A stretch of 64,000 nucleotides of DNA from Bacteroidales bacterium (GTDB lineage: Bacteria > Bacteroidota > Bacteroidia > Bacteroidales > VadinHA17). Positions 2,450 to 49,800 of the stretch are shown here, piece by piece. The notes under the pieces were generated by a model. It worked only from the letters and a program-made list of their open reading frames with translations. It did not search any database and had not been told where the DNA came from. Within the stretch, counting starts at the first letter, position 1; every line of letters starts with the position of its first letter. The stretch lies in assembly GCA_034679225.1 (NCBI GenBank), contig JAXDBC010000017.1, positions 9,565-73,564 on the forward strand, in the 5' to 3' direction. The translations under genes and the position numbers were made by a program.

Positions 2450-4396
2450 TTAATATTTATTCTCAAGCAGATCCATTATTCTCAGGATCTCGCCAACGCT
2501 CCATGCCTGTGAGAAGGTTCCGTTAGGTGCGTGAGGCGGGTCGCCGTCGTGAATCTCGGAGATAGTACTTACCCCGTGTTCACTCATCACCTCTTCGAAT
2601 CCCATTAAAAGCTTCTTTACCCTTGCCACGCCCTGATGGCCGTAGACTTTCAGCCATCCCTCGCAGAAGGGGCCCAGGAGCCACGGCCATACCGTACCGT
2701 TGTGGTAAGCCATATCCCTCACTTCCTGACTTCCGCCGTATGTCCCCTTGTAAAGAGGGTTGCCGGGTGAGAGTGTACGAAGGCCTCTAGGAGTAAGCAG
2801 TTCCTTGTCGGCAATATCCAGTACCCGTTTCATTTGATCCTTGCTGAGCATTGAATATGGAAGAGAAACTGCAATCAGCATGTTTGGTCTCACTGAATAA
2901 TTCTTTCCTTCTTCATCATTTACATAATCTGCAAGGTATCCCTTTGCATGATCACAGAACGTTTCATTAAACGATTGCTTTATGAGTTCGGGAAGCGCTT
3001 CGTATTCCTTCACAAACTTCTTGTCCTTAGCCTTCCGTGCAAGGTCGAGGGTGAAACAAACAGCATTGTACCACAATGCATTTATTTCAACAGCATAACC
3101 GTTTCTCGGTGTAACCGGCACTCCGTTCACAATTGCATCCATCCAGGTAAGTGCTTTTCCGGGGGCATCGGCATAGATCAGGCCATTCTCCCTCATACCG
3201 ATATTGAATCCGGTTCCTGCCCTGTAAGCATTGAGAACCGATTTCATTGCATTCCCGTAATGTTCCCATGCATCGTGGCCTCCATTTTCGAGATACTGCT
3301 GGACAGTCCAGAAAAACCATAGAGGGGCATCAACAGAGTTAAATGCCGGATTATCGGGATTTCCCATGTTGGGGAACAATCCGTCCTTCATGCTGCCTAT
3401 CTGCGTGTCTAAAACATCGCGGTAAAGCTGAAGCTTTTTCTCAGGCCTGGAGGTTGCCAGTCCGGGAAGAGCTATGAAGGTATCCCTGCCCCATGATCCG
3501 AACCAGGGATACCCGGCGATGATAAGGGTCTTGCCCTGCCGGCGCTCCACGAATTGCTGAGCTGCATTCTTGAGACAGTTTGAGAAATTGCTTCTTGGAA
3601 TCTTGCCGCTGACGGTCTTGGTGAATTTTGACTTGAAGCCGCTTGGTTTTTCTTCCCTGGTTGAAGCCGAAAAAACAATCACGTCTCCCTCGCCGGCCTC
3701 CAGTTCGAAGAAACCGGGTGTGAAAAGGTCCTCTGAATAGTCATATCCCCTTTTTTGCTCCTCGATGTACTCTACACCCCGGTACCAGTCGGGAACGTGT
3801 ATAAACTCCGCTTTCCTCGAGAATTGCATGTGCAGATAGGGGAATCCCTCATAGAGCTTCATTTTTATCCCGTTGGGAATAAATTCAACCTTGGTATTGG
3901 CTGAAAGATTTGCATGTGTCAGTTCATGTATGTTCCTGAAGGCAAGAAATGGGCGTATCTGTAGCTTCATCGGTTCCGATGCCTCAAGGATAGTGTACCT
4001 CGACAGGTATTGTTCCTCGTAATGGACAAGAAGCCTTTCATGCTTGAGTTTAACGCCTCCCACCCTGAAAATCCTAGATGGAATTACTTCCATCCCGAGT
4101 TCCTCAATATACTTGTGTCCCTTGGGGCTGTAATAGTCTCCCCTGTATTTTCTTATTCCTATATTGAAGCTCTTGTCCTGATTTACTATAGTGGCGTCAA
4201 TAGAGGAAAGAAGCACATGCCGGTCTCCTCCGAAAGCATCAATCGGGCAAACGAGAAGACCATGATATTTTCTCGTGTTGCATCCGACAATCGTGGTTGC
4301 GGAGTAGGACCCTGCGCGGTTGGCCCTTATCACTTCCCTCGAAAGCGAAAACTCGAGGTTGACAATCTGTGCCTTTTCGAACTTGATATAACTCAT
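2450..4396 (-). CDS. Glycogen debranching enzyme / amylo-alpha-1,6-glucosidase family
   Basis: Blocks GYPWFGSWGRDTFIALPG and AYHNGTVWPWLLGPF are typical of the GDE_C six-hairpin family. I moved the start to Met21 (ATG 4396..4394) because a -7-like box TATCTTTT (4431-4438, - strand) lies inside the longer ORF that begins at 4456. Confidence 0.8.
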   Translation of the reverse strand: MSYIKFEKAQIVNLEFSLSREVIRANRAGSYSATTIVGCNTRKYHGLLVCPIDAFGGDRHVLLSSIDATIVNQDKSFNIGIRKYRGDYYSPKGHKYIEELGMEVIPSRIFRVGGVKLKHERLLVHYEEQYLSRYTILEASEPMKLQIRPFLAFRNIHELTHANLSANTKVEFIPNGIKMKLYEGFPYLHMQFSRKAEFIHVPDWYRGVEYIEEQKRGYDYSEDLFTPGFFELEAGEGDVIVFSASTREEKPSGFKSKFTKTVSGKIPRSNFSNCLKNAAQQFVERRQGKTLIIAGYPWFGSWGRDTFIALPGLATSRPEKKLQLYRDVLDTQIGSMKDGLFPNMGNPDNPAFNSVDAPLWFFWTVQQYLENGGHDAWEHYGNAMKSVLNAYRAGTGFNIGMRENGLIYADAPGKALTWMDAIVNGVPVTPRNGYAVEINALWYNAVCFTLDLARKAKDKKFVKEYEALPELIKQSFNETFCDHAKGYLADYVNDEEGKNYSVRPNMLIAVSLPYSMLSKDQMKRVLDIADKELLTPRGLRTLSPGNPLYKGTYGGSQEVRDMAYHNGTVWPWLLGPFCEGWLKVYGHQGVARVKKLLMGFEEVMSEHGVSTISEIHDGDPPHAPNGTFSQAWSVGEILRIMDLLENKY

Positions 4397-14645: not shown

Positions 14646-15935
14646 CTAGAATGGCATCGGAGCTCCCGGACCGCCGGTCATTCTGTTGCTTGATTTCTTT
14701 AGCGGATCGGTCATTGCAACAACCACCTCATCACCTTCATTCAATCCAGACAGAACCTCTACACTCGAACCGTTCTGGATACCGAGTTTGATCATCACCG
14801 GTTTCAGGCTGTTATCTGCATTCTTCACCCACACAGTCTTGATTCCTCCGGGAAGCTCCGGGAATGATCCGGACTGAAGCAGGCCTTCCGGCATTGAGCC
14901 TGCGGTCATCCCGACCGAAGGAACTGGCATTTTCATAGCCGAAGGGTCCATTTCTGCAGGCATTCCTTCAGCGGTACCGTTCTTCATGGCTTCCTTCATC
15001 ATTTTCATCAGGTATTCCGAATCGGGAGTAAAACGTACCGCCTTACCTGAAAGGATGAGAGTATTCTGTTTCTCTTCTATGAAAATCGTGGCGCTCGCCG
15101 TCATCCCCGGCATAAGCTTTTTCCCTGGATTGGGAGCGCTGAATATCACTACATAGGTTACAACGTTATTTGTAGTAACAGGCTTCAGTCTTACCTGCGA
15201 CACCGAACCTTCAAACTTTTCATCGGGATAGGAGTCAACCGTAAACTGGACTCTCTGGCCCAGTCTAACCTGCCCTATATCAGCCTCGTCAACGCTTGCC
15301 CGAACTTCCATCTGGGTAAGGTCGTTGGCGATGGTGAACATCTCGGGAGTGTTGAAACTTGCGGCTACAGTCTGACCCTCTTCTATTGCCCTATTCAGCA
15401 CCACACCGTCGATAGGTGAATAGATGGTGGCATAGGCAAGATTGACTCTCGCCCGGTCAAGGGCTGATTTTGCATTGTTAAGTAAGGCCTTTGAATTCTG
15501 GTAATTGTAAACAGCCTGGTCATAGTCGGCCTGGGCGATAAGGTTCTTTTCATAAAGCACCTTCATCCTGTTCCAGGTTGCTTCCTGAAAATCTAGCTGT
15601 GCCTTTGCCTGGTCGACCGATGCCTGGCTTTGTTCAAGTTGCGTCCTCAATGGTGTCTCGTCAAGCCTGGCAAGTACCTGGCCCTGTTTTACATTGTCGT
15701 TGAAATCGACATACACATGTTCAATTATCCCCGAAACCTGAGTGCCTACCTCAACAGTGGTAATGGCTTCTATGGTACCGGTTGAAGTAATCGTGTTTGT
15801 AATATCTCCCTTCACAACCTTCACAGTTTCGAAAGAGTATTCAGTCGTCTTCGCCCTGAATAGCTTCAATACAACCAGGACAATCAGGGCCACCATAATC
15901 AGGCCGATGATTATTAATGCCTTCTTTTTCATCAT
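14646..15935 (-). CDS. Efflux periplasmic adaptor (HlyD/MacA family) with Met-rich insert
   Basis: N-terminal membrane anchor MMKKKALIIIGLIMVALIVLVVL, a coiled-coil hairpin (QLEQSQASVDQAKAQL) and beta-barrel segments. Residues 307-349 are Met-rich: EYLMKMMKEAMKNGTAEGMPAEMDPSAMKMPVPSVGMTAGSMP. Confidence 0.85.
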   Translation of the reverse strand: MMKKKALIIIGLIMVALIVLVVLKLFRAKTTEYSFETVKVVKGDITNTITSTGTIEAITTVEVGTQVSGIIEHVYVDFNDNVKQGQVLARLDETPLRTQLEQSQASVDQAKAQLDFQEATWNRMKVLYEKNLIAQADYDQAVYNYQNSKALLNNAKSALDRARVNLAYATIYSPIDGVVLNRAIEEGQTVAASFNTPEMFTIANDLTQMEVRASVDEADIGQVRLGQRVQFTVDSYPDEKFEGSVSQVRLKPVTTNNVVTYVVIFSAPNPGKKLMPGMTASATIFIEEKQNTLILSGKAVRFTPDSEYLMKMMKEAMKNGTAEGMPAEMDPSAMKMPVPSVGMTAGSMPEGLLQSGSFPELPGGIKTVWVKNADNSLKPVMIKLGIQNGSSVEVLSGLNEGDEVVVAMTDPLKKSSNRMTGGPGAPMPF

Positions 15936-16050
15936 AATATAATTTTGATTTTAAGGTCTGATGCATGCCCCGTTCAGGCGGGGGAACCCACATGGCTGAA
16001 AATTAAATAAATACGTGTTTGTGTATTTGATACATGTGGGTTTCATCATT
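15936..16050 (-). repeat. Structured intergenic element, copy 1 (tolC stop to adaptor start)
   Basis: Aligns with 17377-17495 and 31646-31765. Inner hairpin CCCCG-ttcagg-CGGGG at 15968-15983; outer inverted repeat GAACCCACATG (15984-15994) with CATGTGGGTTTC (16033-16044). Confidence 0.8.
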
Positions 16051-16068
16051 TTCTTTATTATAAGGTTT

Positions 16069-17376
16069 TTATATTGTCAATGGAATGCCCGAATAGAAAT
16101 CGAGAACCTTATAGCTGAATATCAGGTTGTACTTTGACTGCAGCAGGTTGCTTTCAGCAAGAACAAGGTTGGTTTTTGAGACGAGGTAATCGACCGAGTT
16201 TATAATTCCCTGCCTGAACTTCTCATCCGAAAGGGCTGCCGATTCGCTTGCAGCGCTGTAATTCTCGAGGCAGGCCTCATAATCCACCTGGGCTGATATT
16301 ACATCGAGGCAGGCTTGTTCAATGCTCTTCCTCAATTCGTTCCTGGTATTAAGTTCACTCAACTCCGCATCCTGGTAGCTCAGCTGTGCCACTGCCACGC
16401 TGGTTTTAACCTGTTTCCTCTGGTAGATCGGGATGGAAAGCGACAGGCCAAGCGAGGGTGAGATACCGTTGTTAACCTGATCGAAATACGGATCGCTCAT
16501 CATGCTCGAATAGTTTGTTCCGACACCTGCACTTGCCGACAGCGACGGATAATAGGCTGCCTTGGCAATCTTCTCATCAAGGGCTGCTATCTCCTTGTTG
16601 ATTTCAGCATTTTTTATCTGAGGTTTGATTCCCAGGGCTATCTGGTAAATCACAGCGACATCGGGTGTCCGGTTCTGGTTTACAGCTTCGTCAGGATTTG
16701 GATCTACAATTGCAAAACTATCTGTTACAGGAAGCTCCATCAGCTGTTCCAGGTTCACCTTCGCGATGGCGAGCTGGCTTCTGGCATTTGCCAGATTCAG
16801 TTTCTCATTTGCCAGTTGCGACTTTACCTGTGCATAGTCGGCCTGTGAGATGAGCCTTATGGCAAGCCTTTCGGCGGCAAGTTCAAGCTGGCTTCGTGTC
16901 GATTCAATCTGCCTCTCAGTATTCCTGACCTGCTCACCCGCATACAGAACCTGGAGATAAGCGTTAAGAATACTCAGGCTTATTGACTCCTTCATTGACT
17001 CGAGCGAATACTGCCCGGCCTCCATGTCGAGCCCTGCCTGCTTTATCTGATTGGTCAGTCTCGAACCGTTGAATATGGTTACCGACGAGTTCGCTGAGAT
17101 ATTCGATCCGTTCATACCATCGTAACCTGATCCGCCTGTGGCCTTGCTCCAGTTGTAATTCTGGGTAACTGAGGCATTAAGCGACGGGTAACGCTGCGCC
17201 CCTGCCTGGTCGGCATAAACCCGGTATTTCTCGTTCGCAAGCTCTCCCTTCCTGACCTGGATATTGTTTTCCAGGGCATGGTTGATACATTCCTCCAGTG
17301 TCCAGATGCTATCCTGCTGGGCCTTAAGCCCGGATGACATAAGGAAGAATACACCAATAATAATTCCATTTTTCAT
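16069..17376 (-). CDS. TolC family outer membrane efflux protein
   Basis: Signal peptide MKNGIIIGVFFLMSSGLKAQ from Met21 of the ORF (ATG 17376) and a two-repeat OEP architecture. It is the first gene of the tolC-adaptor-ATPase-permease run. Confidence 0.85.
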   Translation of the reverse strand: MKNGIIIGVFFLMSSGLKAQQDSIWTLEECINHALENNIQVRKGELANEKYRVYADQAGAQRYPSLNASVTQNYNWSKATGGSGYDGMNGSNISANSSVTIFNGSRLTNQIKQAGLDMEAGQYSLESMKESISLSILNAYLQVLYAGEQVRNTERQIESTRSQLELAAERLAIRLISQADYAQVKSQLANEKLNLANARSQLAIAKVNLEQLMELPVTDSFAIVDPNPDEAVNQNRTPDVAVIYQIALGIKPQIKNAEINKEIAALDEKIAKAAYYPSLSASAGVGTNYSSMMSDPYFDQVNNGISPSLGLSLSIPIYQRKQVKTSVAVAQLSYQDAELSELNTRNELRKSIEQACLDVISAQVDYEACLENYSAASESAALSDEKFRQGIINSVDYLVSKTNLVLAESNLLQSKYNLIFSYKVLDFYSGIPLTI

Positions 17377-17495
17377 CCGTATATGATTTATTTTAAAGGT
17401 CGGATACTGCCTGTCGGCAGACAGGGAACCACACATGATTTAAAATTATATAAATACGTGTTTATGTATTTGACACATGTGGGTTTCATGATTTT
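17377..17495 (-). repeat. Structured intergenic element, copy 2 (immediately upstream of tolC start)
   Basis: Same architecture as copy 1. The inner hairpin has a different sequence, CCTGTC-ggca-GACAGG (17410-17425). Outer repeat GAACCACACATG (17426-17437) with CATGTGGGTTTC (17476-17487). Confidence 0.8.
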
Positions 17496-18014
17496 TATTC
17501 TTTTGGCGTAAAAATAGCCTTGTAATATCCCCGCGAGAAATCCTTTGGAAGTATCGGGAATATTTCCCGACGAAAAGGAATACTTTCAGGATGAAATCTA
17601 AACATACCATCACTGCTGTCCTGATAAACATGTCGCTCCTGCGGAGCTTAACGACCAGAGGGGTGCCCTGCCTTCGGTTTCACCGGAGGTTATTGAAATC
17701 CTTCTCCTTCAGAGAAGCTACCGGCTGATGAATGCTCCTGCGGAGTATGTCAAGGCCAAGAAGTTTCATGAGGGAATATTATCTCCAACTTCCAAATTAT
17801 CAAATCTGGAAAATGGTTGGGCAAGAAAAAGATTTGCTGAAAGGGCGACATTAACCCGAAGTCAATTACTCACTGAGCCTTACCGGGAACCTGGTATCAT
17901 TATTTTGATATAACCAGGAGCCATGATAAGTACCCGATTCACTAATCCGGGTTCCCTTGCGACTACATTGCAGATTCAATTGTCGTCAGGTTGAAATAAG
18001 CAAGAAGGTGATTT

Positions 18015-30991: not shown

Positions 30992-31573
30992 TTATTCAGT
31001 TGCAGCTTCTTCAGCTGAAGTTTCAGCAGATGTATCACCAGCAGCCGGGACTTCAGCGGCAGCTTCAGCATGTGCTTCTTCAGAAGCTGCTTCGGCCTGT
31101 TCCTTCGCGGCAAGTTCAGCCTGTTTCTTTGCCAGTCTGGCGGCCCTTTCTTCATTTACTTTCTTCTCAGCAAGAAGGCGTTTGCTTACATCAGCATCTC
31201 TCGATTTCTCGATACCTGATTTTTTGGATTCAATCTTTTCTTCATTCTGCTTCATCCAGGCTTCAAATCTCCTGTCTGCTTCAGCTTCATCAAATGCACC
31301 CTTCTTCACTCCTTCGAGCAAGTGCTTTTTCAACAGGACACCCTTGTATGAAAGGATGGCTCTGCAGGTTTCTGTCGGTAGCGCGCCCTTTTGCAGCCAA
31401 CCCAACGCTTTATCGAAATCCAGCTCGATGGTTGCGGGGTTAGTTCTCGGATTGTAATTTCCGATCCTTTCAATATATCTGCCATCCCGTGGCGACCTGC
31501 TATCAGCTACCACAATGTGGTAGTAGGCTGTTCTCTTACGGCCTTTCCTAGCTAATCTGATTTTAACTGCCAT
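30992..31573 (-). CDS. rpsP: 30S ribosomal protein S16 with Ala/Glu/Lys-rich C-terminal extension
   Basis: [42 protein letters not shown] followed by a roughly 100-aa charged tail, as is common in Bacteroidota. Confidence 0.95.
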
Positions 31574-31645
31574 TTAGTTTTTAACGCTTTTTATTAAACC
31601 TGTTTTTAAAAATGTGGGTGCAAATATATTGAATTTTTTCATCAT
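31574..31645 (-). other. 23-codon upstream ORF abutting the rpsP start (TAAATG)
   Basis: ATGATGAAAAAATTC... encodes MMKKFNIFAPTFLKTGLIKSVKN. Its TAA (31576..31574) is directly followed by the rpsP ATG (31573). The start region is part of element copy 3. Translation is unproven. Confidence 0.25.
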
Positions 31646-31765
31646 AATATAATTTTGATTTTAGCGGTATGATAGCCTGCCCCGCTCAAGCGGGGGAACC
31701 GCACATGATTGAAAATTATATTCATTACGTATTTGTGCTTGAATTCAATCATGTGGGTTTCAAGA
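31646..31765 (-). repeat. Structured intergenic element, copy 3 (upstream of rpsP)
   Basis: Bases 31635-31663 are identical to 15925-15953 of copy 1. Inner hairpin CCCCGC-tcaa-GCGGGG at 31680-31695; outer repeat GAACCGCACATGATT (31696-31710) with AATCATGTGGGTTTC (31747-31761). Confidence 0.8.
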
Positions 31766-31795
31766 AACAACTAAATAAATTGAGTTACAGACTAT

Positions 31796-31815
31796 GGGGC
31801 ACGGGGCGCGGGGTG
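31796..31815. repeat. G-rich heptamer stutter GGGGCAC GGGGCGC GGGGTG
   Basis: Three G4 runs spaced by 3 nt. It is the reverse complement of the word type seen at 25078-25091. Confidence 0.6.
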
Positions 31816-31896
31816 TCATGATAAGTGAATGCCGGGTGATTGTCGGGCGTTGATAACTCGTGGCGGATTTTTGGGATGCCTGTCGGTCTTTTTGGC

Positions 31897-48194: not shown

Positions 48195-48779
48195 ATGGGT
48201 TTCGACTTACGGGAAATACTTGCTGCATTTATGGTGCTTTTTGCCATAATAGACATCACGGGATCGATACCGATTATCCTCGATATAAAAGCCCGGGTCG
48301 GTATTGTTCATCCGATGAGGGTTACTATTGTGTCATTCCTGATCTTATGCGCGTTTCTGTTCATCGGAACACCCCTGCTTGGAATTTTCGGTGTTGACAT
48401 CTATTCTTTTGCCATTGCAGGTTCATTTATCATCTTCCTCATAGCCATGGAGATGATACTTGGAATAGAATTATTCAAGCAGGATGCACACGGGAGCGGT
48501 TCGGTGTTCCCGATAGCGTTCCCGCTTATTGCAGGCGCCGGATCAATAACAACGATCCTTTCGATCAAGGCCGAATACAGCACTATAAACATATTCATAG
48601 CATTGGCGCTTAATATGGTAGTCATCTACTTTGTTTTAAGACTTACCTCCTTGTTTGAAAGGATACTGGGCAAGAGCGGGGTTTCGATCCTCAAAAAAGT
48701 GTTTGGAGTAATACTGCTTTCAATAGCGATTAAGCTTTTTCTATCAAACACGGGCATAACGCTGATCAATGACAGGTGA
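48195..48779 (+). CDS. MarC family (UPF0056) integral membrane protein
   Basis: 194 aa with six hydrophobic segments and the typical MarC-length architecture. Confidence 0.8.
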   Translation: MGFDLREILAAFMVLFAIIDITGSIPIILDIKARVGIVHPMRVTIVSFLILCAFLFIGTPLLGIFGVDIYSFAIAGSFIIFLIAMEMILGIELFKQDAHGSGSVFPIAFPLIAGAGSITTILSIKAEYSTINIFIALALNMVVIYFVLRLTSLFERILGKSGVSILKKVFGVILLSIAIKLFLSNTGITLINDR

Positions 48780-49272
48780 GATAACAATCTACACCGACGG
48801 CGCTGCAAGCGGGAACCCCGGACCCGGAGGTTACGGTGTGGTTCTGATTTGCGGCAAACACAGGCTTGAGAAGTCTGAAGGATTCAGGCTGACCACCAAC
48901 AACAGGATGGAATTGATGGCTGTGATCGTGGGACTTGAAGCGCTGAAGATCCCCGGGAGCAGGGTGGTAATTTATACCGACTCGAAGTATGTGGCAGACT
49001 CGGTTGAAAAAGGATGGGTGTTCCGTTGGGAAGCAAATGGTTTCAAAAAGAAGAAAAATCCTGATCTCTGGATCAGGTTCCTGCGTGTCTACAGAAAGCA
49101 TAATGTAAGATTCATCTGGATAAAGGGGCACGCCAGCAATCCTGAGAATGAACTCTGCGACCGGCTTGCCGTGGAGGCAGGGAAGGGGAAGCAGCTGAGT
49201 GAGGACAGCGGTTATAATCCTGAAGAAAACGAAAATGATCTGTTCGGAGCACAAGTGGGTTCACCGGCCTGA
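48769..49272 (+). CDS. rnhA: Ribonuclease HI
   Basis: ITIYTDGAASGNPGPGGYG, NNRMELMA, YTDSKYV and NELCDRLA catalytic blocks. It overlaps marC by 11 nt. Confidence 0.9.
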   Translation: MTGEITIYTDGAASGNPGPGGYGVVLICGKHRLEKSEGFRLTTNNRMELMAVIVGLEALKIPGSRVVIYTDSKYVADSVEKGWVFRWEANGFKKKKNPDLWIRFLRVYRKHNVRFIWIKGHASNPENELCDRLAVEAGKGKQLSEDSGYNPEENENDLFGAQVGSPA

Positions 49273-49302
49273 GAGGGTTACCATTTAGATCAAAATCATA
49301 TT

Positions 49303-49800
49303 ATGAAGAAAGGCCAGAAAGAACTTTATGAAACGCTGGAGAAGCTTGAAATAAGCTTTGATTATCATGAACATCCTCCGCTCAATACCATTGAGGATGC
49401 CATTGTTCACTGGAAGGATTTCAATTCAGGCAGGTGCAAGAATATCTTCTTCAGGAATCACAAGGGCAACAGGCATTATCTTGTTATCCTTGAGCACCTG
49501 CGCCAGCTCAACATACATGATCTTGAGAAGCGTCTCAGGCAGGGAAAGCTGACCTTTGCCTCCGACAAGCGTCTTATGAGGTACCTGGGCGTAGAACCCG
49601 GATCTGTCAGTCCGTTTGGCCTGATCAACGACACTGAAAATCATGTTCATCTTTTCATTGATGAACATCTCGGCGATTATGAAAGGCTGGCTTTTCACCC
49701 GAATGTAAATACAGCTTCACTGGTGATTTCGAAGACTGACTTTATAAGATTCCTCGAATTCACCGGTAACTCTTACGAGTTCATAAAGCTGTACGACTGA
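49303..49800 (+). CDS. YbaK/ProX-type prolyl-tRNA synthetase-associated (aminoacyl-tRNA deacylase) domain protein
   Basis: 165 aa. The CKNIFFRNHKGNRHYLV and GVEPGSVSPFG pattern is typical of the family. Confidence 0.7.
   Translation: MKKGQKELYETLEKLEISFDYHEHPPLNTIEDAIVHWKDFNSGRCKNIFFRNHKGNRHYLVILEHLRQLNIHDLEKRLRQGKLTFASDKRLMRYLGVEPGSVSPFGLINDTENHVHLFIDEHLGDYERLAFHPNVNTASLVISKTDFIRFLEFTGNSYEFIKLYD

Follow-up and report, generated by a model that had tools for sequence, protein, structure and literature searches.

A probable non-coding mobile repeat that enters at ATGAA(A) and rebuilds the start codon in uncultured Bacteroidales

A 64,000-nucleotide stretch of DNA from a Bacteroidales bacterium (VadinHA17; assembly GCA_034679225.1, contig JAXDBC010000017.1, positions 9,565 to 73,564 of the forward strand), referred to here as the window, contains three copies of a structured intergenic element, two of which bracket a tolC-type efflux gene. 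Comparison of these copies with one another, with orthologous loci and with related copies in other genomes supports the view, held with a probability of about 0.78, that they belong to a family of non-coding, non-autonomous mobile repeats that target the sequence ATGAA(A) and are widespread in uncultured Bacteroidales and related Bacteroidia. The unit enters in a single orientation at 5'-ATGAA(A)-3', and the motif is then present at both of its ends. The upstream motif is the old start codon, now held in the 5' strand of a stem, and the downstream motif, behind about 30 nucleotides of AT-rich element sequence, becomes the working start codon of an intact gene. The insertion is thereby unusual in two respects, its start-codon target and its capacity for self-repair.

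Insertion and restoration of the start codon

The first-pass annotation of the window, made from its sequence alone, had reported three intergenic copies of the element, and all three are present where it placed them and align over their whole length, with a mean column identity of 76% when they are set end to end on the gene-sense (minus) strand. Their positions stand, although the complete units recovered with nhmmer are slightly longer than was first described (Table 1). Copy 1 is placed between the tolC stop (16069) and the start of an HlyD-type adaptor gene, copy 2 lies at the other end of tolC, and copy 3 is found between dnaE and the divergent rpsP-rimM pair, 70 nucleotides upstream of rpsP. 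All three terminate in ...GATGAAAAA, and the alignment runs on through the start codon. The earlier statement that each copy ends at a start codon holds for copies 1 and 2, where the adaptor and TolC are recognised by Pfam, but for copy 3 it must be qualified, in that the terminal ATG opens an open reading frame (ORF) of only 23 codons.

The arrangement of the motif at the two ends can be read directly from the individual copies. Copy 1 has the form ATGAAA-CCCACATG...GATG-ATGAAA, in which the old ATGAAA is made up of AT (16046-16045) and the start of the left arm, and the rebuilt host start codon falls at 15932-15930, with an additional in-frame ATG at 15935-15933. The old ATGAAA of copy 2 is at 17489-17484 and the rebuilt tolC start, also ATGAAA, at 17376-17371. 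Copy 3 has TTGAAA rather than ATGAAA at its left junction and ATGAAA at its right (31642-31637).

Evidence for insertion comes from loci in which the element is missing. Searching metagenomes with the TolC protein recovered 48 orthologous loci, and at about 40 of them no arm of the element lies near either end of tolC. Upstream of tolC the window reads ...caaaagaataaaaatcATGAAA[CCCACATG...cggATGAAA]AATGGAATT, and the corresponding empty site in locus L117 (TolC 84% identical) reads ...caaaagtgtatcaaccATGAGAAATGGAATT. At the junction of tolC and the adaptor gene the window reads ...aaaatgATGAAA[CCC...tatgATGAAA]AAGAAGGCATTAATA, and the empty site in locus L118 (TolC 83% identical) reads ...aaaacaATGAAGAAGAAGACATTGATA, also given as ...aaaacaATGAAGAAGAAGACATTG. 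In each of these two loci one ATGAxx stands in place of the ATGAAA-[element]-ATGAAA of the window; at both filled sites the extra sequence consists of the unit plus one hexamer, and the host reading frame picks up exactly. The N-terminus of TolC, taken from the rebuilt start, aligns with those of its orthologues, and the adaptor begins MKKKTLII in the L118 orthologue and (M)MKKKALII in the window. These empty orthologous sites therefore establish that the element was inserted and that its 3' end restores the host start codon.

Locus L117 has, at its tolC-adaptor junction, a decayed copy of the same loop subfamily as that in the window; judged from these sequences, the insertion at this junction may be old, or the site may have been struck twice. 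In loci L124-L126 (TolC 68% identical) a different subfamily occupies the same tolC start as copy 2, which indicates, on sequence comparison, an independent strike on that site. This divergent subfamily (L125 and L126, 2399-2500; also L012, minus strand, about 3540-3660) has the left arm TGAAATCCACATG and the tail ATGAGAATCACTTAATCTTCAGTAGTGTATAAATTTATTTTCAC-ATGAAA.

Across the family the ends of the unit are strikingly constant. On the left, the flanking base at -2 is A in 94% of copies and that at -1 is T in 99%, and 101 of 108 copies have ATG as their left triplet. On the right, 97 of 108 have the hexamer ATGAAA, the remainder being ATGAAT, ATGAAG, ATGAAC and ATGACG. This pattern suggests that the sixth base may be supplied by the target and that the core would be ATGAA. 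All copies have the same orientation with respect to ATGAA(A). At the right end, the ATG opens an ORF of at least 60 codons, or one running off the locus, in 83 of the 108 copies, to be compared with the ATGAAA sites of the window, of which 27 of 101 open at least 60 codons and 6 of 101 resemble gene starts. Many of the copies that have no long ORF downstream are the first members of tandem arrays. ATGAA(A) is the commonest Met-Lys gene start in these genomes, and the repetition of the motif, together with the rebuilt start, explains why copies are found at gene starts, why one is tolerated at the tolC-adaptor junction and why head-to-tail arrays form. Copies presumably persist mainly where restoration of the start matters, at gene starts and operon junctions; insertion at an internal ATGAAA would break genes.

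Architecture and folding of the unit

The anatomy of the unit was derived from an alignment of 101 distinct copies on the gene-sense strand. The 5' part consists of (A)T-GAAACCCACATG, a loop of 30-52 nucleotides and CATGTG(N)GGTTCC; the 3' part consists of an optional GC hairpin of about 20 nucleotides, ATCNN, ACC(A/T)TTAAAAT(C)AAAATTATAT and NNGAT-GAAA. Units measure 95-140 base pairs, with 87-126 nucleotides between their two ATGs. The outer inverted repeat described by the first-pass annotation is present in all three window copies, and four sites in the window match its left arm GAAACCCACATG with no more than one mismatch, where 0.43 would be expected; none of the shuffled sequences reached four. 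The first-pass annotation had not recognised the presence of ATGAA(A) at both ends, the covarying stem ATCNN/NNGAT or the internal position of the right arm. The tail after the right arm (ATCNN...NNGATGAAA, 35-60 nucleotides), which every copy conserves, is part of the insertion, because the empty sites lack it. No inverted repeat relates the true ends of the element, GAAACCC... and ...NNGAT.

Stem 1, formed by the left and right arms, is 12-14 base pairs long. Its arms were set by the search pattern, and they are near-invariant in the relaxed set too. Position 4 of the stem is an A.C mismatch, Watson-Crick in none of 215 arm pairs, which on the antisense strand becomes a G.T wobble, and about half of the copies have an extra C or T bulged from the right arm. 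The stem extends inward by a mean of 2.3 base pairs, against 0.44 in shuffled loops, and the extension differs by subfamily (ATTGA/TCAAT, TTTT/AAAA or T/A). Stem 2, formed by ATCNN and NNGAT, covaries, with AU in 74, CG in 15 and UA in 5 copies at one pair and GC in 51 and UA in 39 at the next. The GC hairpins of the three window copies are where they were first seen (Table 1), and their stems differ by fully compensated changes; among 117 distinct copies, however, only 16 have this hairpin, the three of the window included, and what had been taken for a constant part of the unit is an optional module. It occurs in two fully compensated variants, CCCGC...GCGGG and CTGTC...GACAG, with double changes at 3 of 5 pairs (CG/UA, CG/GC and GC/UA) among 12 module-bearing copies from several species. 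The inference of selection on structure, drawn initially from three hairpins, has thus been strengthened: both stem 2 and the GC hairpin covary, the covariation score of the whole structure is reached by 0 of 500 shuffles, and slid controls collapse. Both strands fold better than their shuffles, the gene-sense strand with z from -2.4 to -3.9 and the antisense strand equally well or better, and folding energy therefore cannot tell which strand is functional.

Loci L090 (2390-2500, minus strand), L093 (1-150, plus strand) and L094 (3794-3914, minus strand) have an extra small GC-rich hairpin (CCGAGCTTGCGAGCTCGACGAAG, CCCGACTTAGCGGGAG) inside the loop of stem 1. Such loop hairpins and the optional GC module together suggest a modular gain and loss of small GC hairpins. 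A resemblance to a hammerhead-like CUGAUGA...GAAA arrangement, prompted by CTGATGAAAC, was considered and rejected, as the CTG varies and covaries with ATCAG, and stem 1 has no GAAA following it.

Family size, genomic distribution and arrays

A collection of species-representative genomes was scanned with the exact pattern GAAACCCACATG-N30-52-CATGTG-N0-1-GGTTCC, which matched at least 116 genomic stretches from at least 61 distinct assemblies. The metagenome-assembled genomes (MAGs) that were matched are labelled Bacteroidales, Rikenellaceae, Paludibacteraceae, Lentimicrobiaceae, Prolixibacteraceae and Bacteroidia/Bacteroidota, the exceptions among the matches listed being one Chitinophaga and one Peptococcaceae; loci per MAG, again among the matches listed, were 6-11, with a maximum of 11. 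The 1.1 Mb of DNA flanking these matches contained 124 exact copies, 216 arm pairs with at most two mismatches per arm and 206 nhmmer matches, 145 of the last being near full length. The family comprises more than 200 copies in at least 61 MAG species of the Bacteroidales/Bacteroidia. Its members are chromosomal, since a search of a plasmid collection with blastn in distant mode gave no match to the element and only 2 matches were found among 2.9 million viral contigs. The genes downstream of the copies are unrelated, and an all-against-all blastp comparison of 1,009 ORFs from 116 element loci revealed no recurrent family among them.

Units also occur directly beside one another. In the head-to-tail arrays of loci L038, L081 and L110 neighbouring units share one ATGAAA (...CTGAT-GAAACCCACATG...), and 10 adjacent head-to-tail pairs were found among the 145 full-length matches. 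Neighbours in these three arrays may come from different subfamilies and are therefore the products of separate insertions into an existing 3' end rather than of local duplication; the element's own 3' end is a good target for insertion.

The family does not correspond to anything recovered from the databases and literature that were consulted. The Rfam comparison proposed by the first-pass annotation, which could not place the element in any RNA or repeat family familiar to it, gave no usable match: in Rfam 15 nothing in the window reaches a gathering threshold, and copy 3 searched at E <= 10 gave only noise (E >= 0.3, plant microRNA models). Literature searches on the arm sequence, on miniature inverted-repeat transposable elements (MITEs) of Bacteroidales or Bacteroidetes and on start-codon-regenerating repeats produced nothing relevant. 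The element family is, on these searches, previously undescribed, and no description of a start-codon-rebuilding repeat was found for the Bacteroidota.

Proposed mobilisation and its difficulties

The folded structure invites a proposal, made here tentatively and at somewhat less than even odds, that the element is mobilised as a folded single strand under the guidance of its hairpins. The internal sequence GGTTCC-ATCNN would pair with both the 5' end (GAAACC) and the 3' end (NNGAT), and a coaxial stem would bring the termini next to each other, the ATGAA core being placed where they meet. The stems are maintained by covariation, and one mismatch and one bulge are preserved. Conserved imperfections are typical of hairpins that are read by single-strand-specific enzymes, such as the HUH transposases and the integron and Xer recombinases. 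The enzyme would act in trans, and candidates include an HUH enzyme of the IS200/IS605 kind, an IS110-like DEDD enzyme or a tyrosine recombinase. A more elaborate version of the proposal, and a slightly more doubtful one, is that the family represents a new form of homing to translation starts, in which GGTTCC-ATCNN serves the folded single strand as a splint, lining up the ends and the ATGAA core for a hairpin-reading enzyme (a recombinase or transposase) that is encoded elsewhere, and in which the element has evolved to be harmless to translation by providing a replacement leader and start codon. The effect on the host is probably near neutral, the gene having acquired a longer, hairpin-containing leader with a rebuilt start.

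Several observations weigh against a mobile repeat that selects ATGAA(A), or against the particular route just outlined. No autonomous partner or transposase was found in the 1.1 Mb of flanks, and mobility is concluded from comparison; the same flanks yielded no convincing orphan arms, copies without a nearby tail or tails up to several kilobases away, and there is no recurrent transposase-like ORF family among the 1,009 flanking ORFs. No within-species polymorphism for presence or absence was seen for copy 3, which all contigs with an identical S16 protein carry; at copies 1 and 2, look-ups by exact protein return only alleles that bear the element. The enrichment at gene starts could reflect purifying selection alone, with no recognition beyond the hexamer, and the repeated ATGAA(A) could be a target duplication, a recombination core or a target together with an element-borne copy, all of which are compatible with the data. 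The two hairpins of the element are unlike each other, whereas those at the two ends of IS200/IS605 elements are alike. The loci of the closed 3.36-Mb contig JAXGLU010000001.1 show both orientations interleaved over short distances (plus in the 984-992 kb block, for example, and minus in the 1,000-1,008 kb block), a poor fit to a strict lagging-strand bias, with 11 loci being too few to decide.

Parallels with known mobile elements are instructive. Like the non-autonomous derivatives of IS200/IS605 (palindrome-associated transposable elements, PATEs) and other derivatives of HUH single-strand transposons, the element has neither terminal inverted repeats (TIRs) at both termini nor a variable target duplication, inserts in one orientation beside a fixed motif of 4-6 nucleotides, and has conserved imperfect hairpins near its ends, together with internal bases that are complementary to the region of the cleavage or the junction. 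It departs from that group in that its two hairpins differ in sequence and size, though both covary or are conserved, in that the target hexamer is found at both ends, in the failure of any Y1 transposase to recur in the 8-kb flanks, and in the lack of a clear replication-strand bias at the 11 loci of the one closed contig. A second parallel is with the insertion sequence (IS) IS900, which inserts in one orientation between the ribosome-binding site and the start codon of its target genes. IS900, a member of the IS110/IS1111 family, has no terminal repeats or flanking direct repeats (PMC8141618), and target choice in that family is guided by bridge or seeker RNAs (PMC11187229). The present element resembles these sequences in its sequence- and orientation-specific insertion at translation-start signals, its lack of TIRs and its short core common to donor junction and target. 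IS110/IS1111 elements are, in contrast, autonomous ISs of 1.2-1.5 kb with a DEDD transposase and a guide RNA of about 150-200 nucleotides, whereas the element is non-coding, about 100 nucleotides long and too short for a guide RNA, has an apparent target of 5-6 nucleotides and has no DEDD gene in the flanks of its loci. By analogy, the element would appear to work most like these target-specific, TIR-less elements; this is a likeness only, and assigns it to neither group.

Other small repeats offer partial comparisons. Correia elements have 26-bp TIRs and duplicate TA. The Correia elements, or Neisseria miniature insertion sequences (NEMIS), and other bacterial MITEs have been reviewed (PMC3184786). 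The present element shares with these a length of 100-150 bp, occurrence by the hundreds per genome beside genes with which they are co-transcribed, hairpins and possible promoter-like boxes, and a tendency to break assemblies and to confuse start-codon calling. It is set apart from Correia elements by the internal position of its right arm, by ATGAA(A) as the repeated sequence and by an insertion that rebuilds the start codon. The mycobacterial interspersed repetitive units (MIRUs), reportedly described by Supply et al. in 1997, are said to be intergenic operon repeats with small ORFs that overlap the flanking stop and start codons. Position at operon junctions in the orientation of the genes, and a read-through small ORF in one subfamily (37 of 108 copies), recall them, but MIRUs are tandem minisatellite units without a two-stem architecture, and the read-through ORF is not a property of the whole family. 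The putative mobile promoters reportedly proposed by Matus-Garcia, Nijveen and van Passel in 2012 are likewise near-identical upstream sequences before unrelated genes; these are defined by upstream reuse alone, and the element has defined boundaries, a target and a structure, with a promoter as a candidate only.

Alternative explanations

Among the alternatives the one that survives best, unlikely as it is when taken by itself, is that the element is a portable promoter: an outward promoter in the AT-rich loop (TTG...TATAATTTTCA) would give each downstream gene its own transcription start, and the element would be kept by selection. This reading is compatible with insertion at ATGAA(A) and does not exclude it. 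It had been raised at the outset by the sequence TAATTTT(C/A) on the gene-sense strand, which is indeed present in all three window copies. Over the family a TATAAT/TAATTTT box is conserved about 5-12 nucleotides before the right arm (TATAAT in 72 and TAnnTTTn in 62 of 117 copies), 24 of 117 copies have the combination TTG-N17-23-TAnnTTT (the figure for shuffled loops is 0.18, and the antisense strand has it in 1 of 117), and copy 1 occupies an operon junction, where an additional promoter could act. The Bacteroidota sigma-A promoter is said, in work ascribed to Bayley et al. (2000) and Mastropaolo et al. (2009), to have the -7 box TAnnTTTG and a -33 TTTG located 19-21 nucleotides upstream, yet only 3 of 117 loops have the -7 box with its G, and the modal spacing from TTG to TAAT is 22 nucleotides rather than the usual 19-21. 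A scan of 15800-17700 for sigma-70 promoters and intrinsic terminators found nothing in the element loops, those of copies 1 and 2 not being flagged by the sigma-70-type model.

At tolC, moreover, the element need not supply a promoter. A box cTATTTTTAcg, directly upstream of the old ATG of the window, is conserved in the closest TolC orthologues (L117, L119, L120 and L148), with looser variants of this -7-like box in more distant ones; in the form c(T)ATTTTTAyg, followed by caaaa, it lies about 15-20 nucleotides upstream of the tolC start (window 17490-17530, minus strand). This is probably the native tolC promoter, still directly upstream of copy 2. With the native box upstream of the old ATG, the element is expected to be transcribed within the tolC leader.

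That the copies are repetitive extragenic palindromes (REPs) or bacterial interspersed mosaic elements (BIMEs), kept by a REP-associated tyrosine transposase (RAYT), or else folded recombination sites akin to attC or Xer sites, and not a transposing unit, is very improbable. The imperfect palindromes with their conserved mismatch, bulged base and variable loop do suggest such sites, as do the head-to-tail arrays and the arms with ...AAC / GTT..., which integron R boxes have as well. REPs, however, are 20-40 nucleotides long, begin with GTAG-like tetranucleotides and are found mostly at the 3' ends of genes, and the present units, at 95-140 nucleotides, stand at start codons and for the most part (83 of 108) open a long ORF. 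The attC boxes RYYYAAC/GTTRRRY do not match the ATGAAAC/GTTCCAT of the element, arrayed copies abut with no cassette ORFs between them, and no RAYT or integrase recurs in the flanks.

A slightly poorer case can be made for a cis-regulatory RNA leader (a riboswitch, thermosensor, leader peptide or translational-coupling device) whose copies would be related by function and not by transposition. The gene-sense RNA folds better than shuffles and its stems covary; in 37 of 108 copies an upstream ORF (uORF) from the old ATG stops at a TGA overlapping the new ATG (UGAUG), in the manner of translational coupling; and the region from -15 to +15 is predicted to be more open around the new ATG than around the old one in 89 of 97 copies. 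Against this, the antisense strand folds equally well or better and it alone turns the fixed A.C into a G.U wobble, the new AUG itself is, by prediction, largely paired within stem 2 (its probability of being unpaired is 0.16, versus 0.33 for the old AUG), tandem arrays occur, and Rfam offers no match. The predictions weakly suggest that the hairpin may hide the old start and expose the new one. The idea of a gene-specific leader, one of those offered by the first-pass annotation, is contradicted by the unrelated genes downstream and by at least 40 TolC orthologues without the element. Read-through of a uORF, with translational coupling, as a family-wide property was rejected: it is confined to the 95-nucleotide subfamily (37 of 108 copies), and in the CATGATTGA subfamily, to which copy 3 belongs, the uORF ends after 4 codons.

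Least probable of all is a classical TIR-MITE, that is, an internally deleted IS of the DDE-transposase type with TIRs GAAACCCACATG/CATGTGGGTTCC and a short target duplication, for which the element is suitably small (<300 bp), non-coding and multi-copy, with a 12-bp inverted repeat and an AT on both sides of stem 1 (AT-GAAACC...GGTTCC-AT) that can be read as a 2-bp duplication, but which is at odds with a conserved 35-60-nucleotide tail that belongs to the insertion beyond the right arm, with true termini that have no common inverted repeat, with a flanking direct repeat that is fixed in sequence as ATGAA(A) and not variable, and with the absence of any related insertion sequence from the 1.1 Mb of flanks. 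The description of the element as MITE-like can accordingly be kept in a loose sense, on the strength of its copy number, spread, arrays and empty sites, but the internal right arm excludes a TIR-MITE, and the two features that define MITEs, TIRs at both termini and a target duplication of variable sequence, are lacking.

Features of the window

The units of the window and the genes associated with them are collected in Table 1. The genes downstream of tolC encode, by Pfam, the HlyD-type adaptor, an ABC ATPase and a MacB-type permease. The 23-codon ORF that begins at the terminal ATG of copy 3 ends in a TAA that abuts the rpsP ATG at 31573 (TAAATG); it is probably a by-product of the insertion, and may alternatively couple translation into rpsP. 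At the copy 3 site locus L172 has the tail variant ACTGAT in place of TATGAT, which may reflect a difference between strains or a chimera induced by the repeat. A G-rich stretch, ggggcacggggcgcggggtg, with a short hairpin, gccgggtgattgtcgggc, nearby, lies at 31790-31860 (plus-strand coordinates), between copy 3 and dnaE.

A 5'-truncated relic was also found in the window, made up of a right arm (CAAGTGGGTTCA), a hairpin like the GC module (CCGGCCTGAGAGGG) and the tail. It terminates at the ATGAAG start of a 165-aa (amino acid) ORF at 49303. The final codons of an upstream RNase H-like ORF (48769-49272) extend into this relic.

Table 1. Copies of the element and associated genes in the window (HMM, profile hidden Markov model)
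Feature	Position	Strand	Evidence
Copy 1, full unit	15927..16046	-	nhmmer E=6.6e-22, HMM positions 1-101
Copy 1, left arm GAAACCCACATG, 5' arm of stem 1	16033..16044	-	
Copy 1, right arm CATGTGGGTTCC, 3' arm of stem 1, internal and not terminal	15983..15994	-	
Copy 1, optional GC hairpin module, CCCCG-loop-CGGGG	15968..15983	-	
Copy 2, full unit, directly upstream of tolC	17371..17489	-	nhmmer E=4.7e-20
Copy 2, left arm GAAACCCACATG	17476..17487	-	
Copy 2, right arm CATGTG-T-GGTTCC, bulged T	17425..17437	-	
Copy 2, GC hairpin module, second variant, CCTGTC-GGCA-GACAGG (plus strand)	17410..17425	-	
Copy 3, full unit, dnaE-rpsP divergent intergenic region	31637..31763	-	nhmmer E=4.2e-21
Copy 3, left arm GAAACCCACATG	31750..31761	-	
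Copy 3, right arm CATGTG-C-GGTTCC, bulged C	31695..31707	-	
Copy 3, GC hairpin module, CCCCGC-TCAA-GCGGGG (plus strand)	31680..31695	-	
23-codon ORF MMKKFNIFAPTFLKTGLIKSVKN, begins at terminal ATG of copy 3	31574..31645	-	
5'-truncated relic	49250..49310	+	nhmmer on window only, E=0.018, HMM positions 51-100
tolC-type outer-membrane efflux gene, 435 aa from rebuilt start	16069..17376	-	Pfam OEP, 1.1e-57
HlyD-type membrane-fusion adaptor gene, start rebuilt by copy 1	14646..15935	-	Pfam HlyD_D23, 2e-24

Consequences for annotation, assembly and gene expression

The presence of the repeat has left its mark on public data. Public gene calls make TolC 455 aa long (16069-17436, minus strand; L175-L178) by taking as its start an ATG that lies within the right arm of copy 2, and the protein collection lacks the 435-aa product of the rebuilt start. 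The longer start is an annotation artefact caused by the repeat, of the kind that arises when gene callers start ORFs within the element, and a 50-aa ORF called on the antisense strand across copy 3 is a spurious small ORF. Assemblies are affected as well. Of eight same-species contigs that have the identical S16 gene, six break off within copy 3 or at its edge, and contigs with TolC end about 50 nucleotides past the tolC stop, inside copy 1. Contigs from short-read assemblies (L169-L178) that end at copies 1 and 3 therefore indicate that the family fragments Bacteroidales MAGs.

For the biology of these bacteria, a repeat that inserts at the start codon and rebuilds it illustrates how a gene can survive a mobile element in its most sensitive position. 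With its fixed hexamer, covarying stems and conserved mismatch, the family offers a clean substrate for tracing the enzyme responsible. If the leader or the promoter-like box works, the element would be a ready-made expression module for anaerobes that are poorly tractable. If homing by means of the splint is true, the family would exemplify a new way in which a bacterial mobile element selects its target, and would provide Bacteroidales genes with a natural portable 5' leader.

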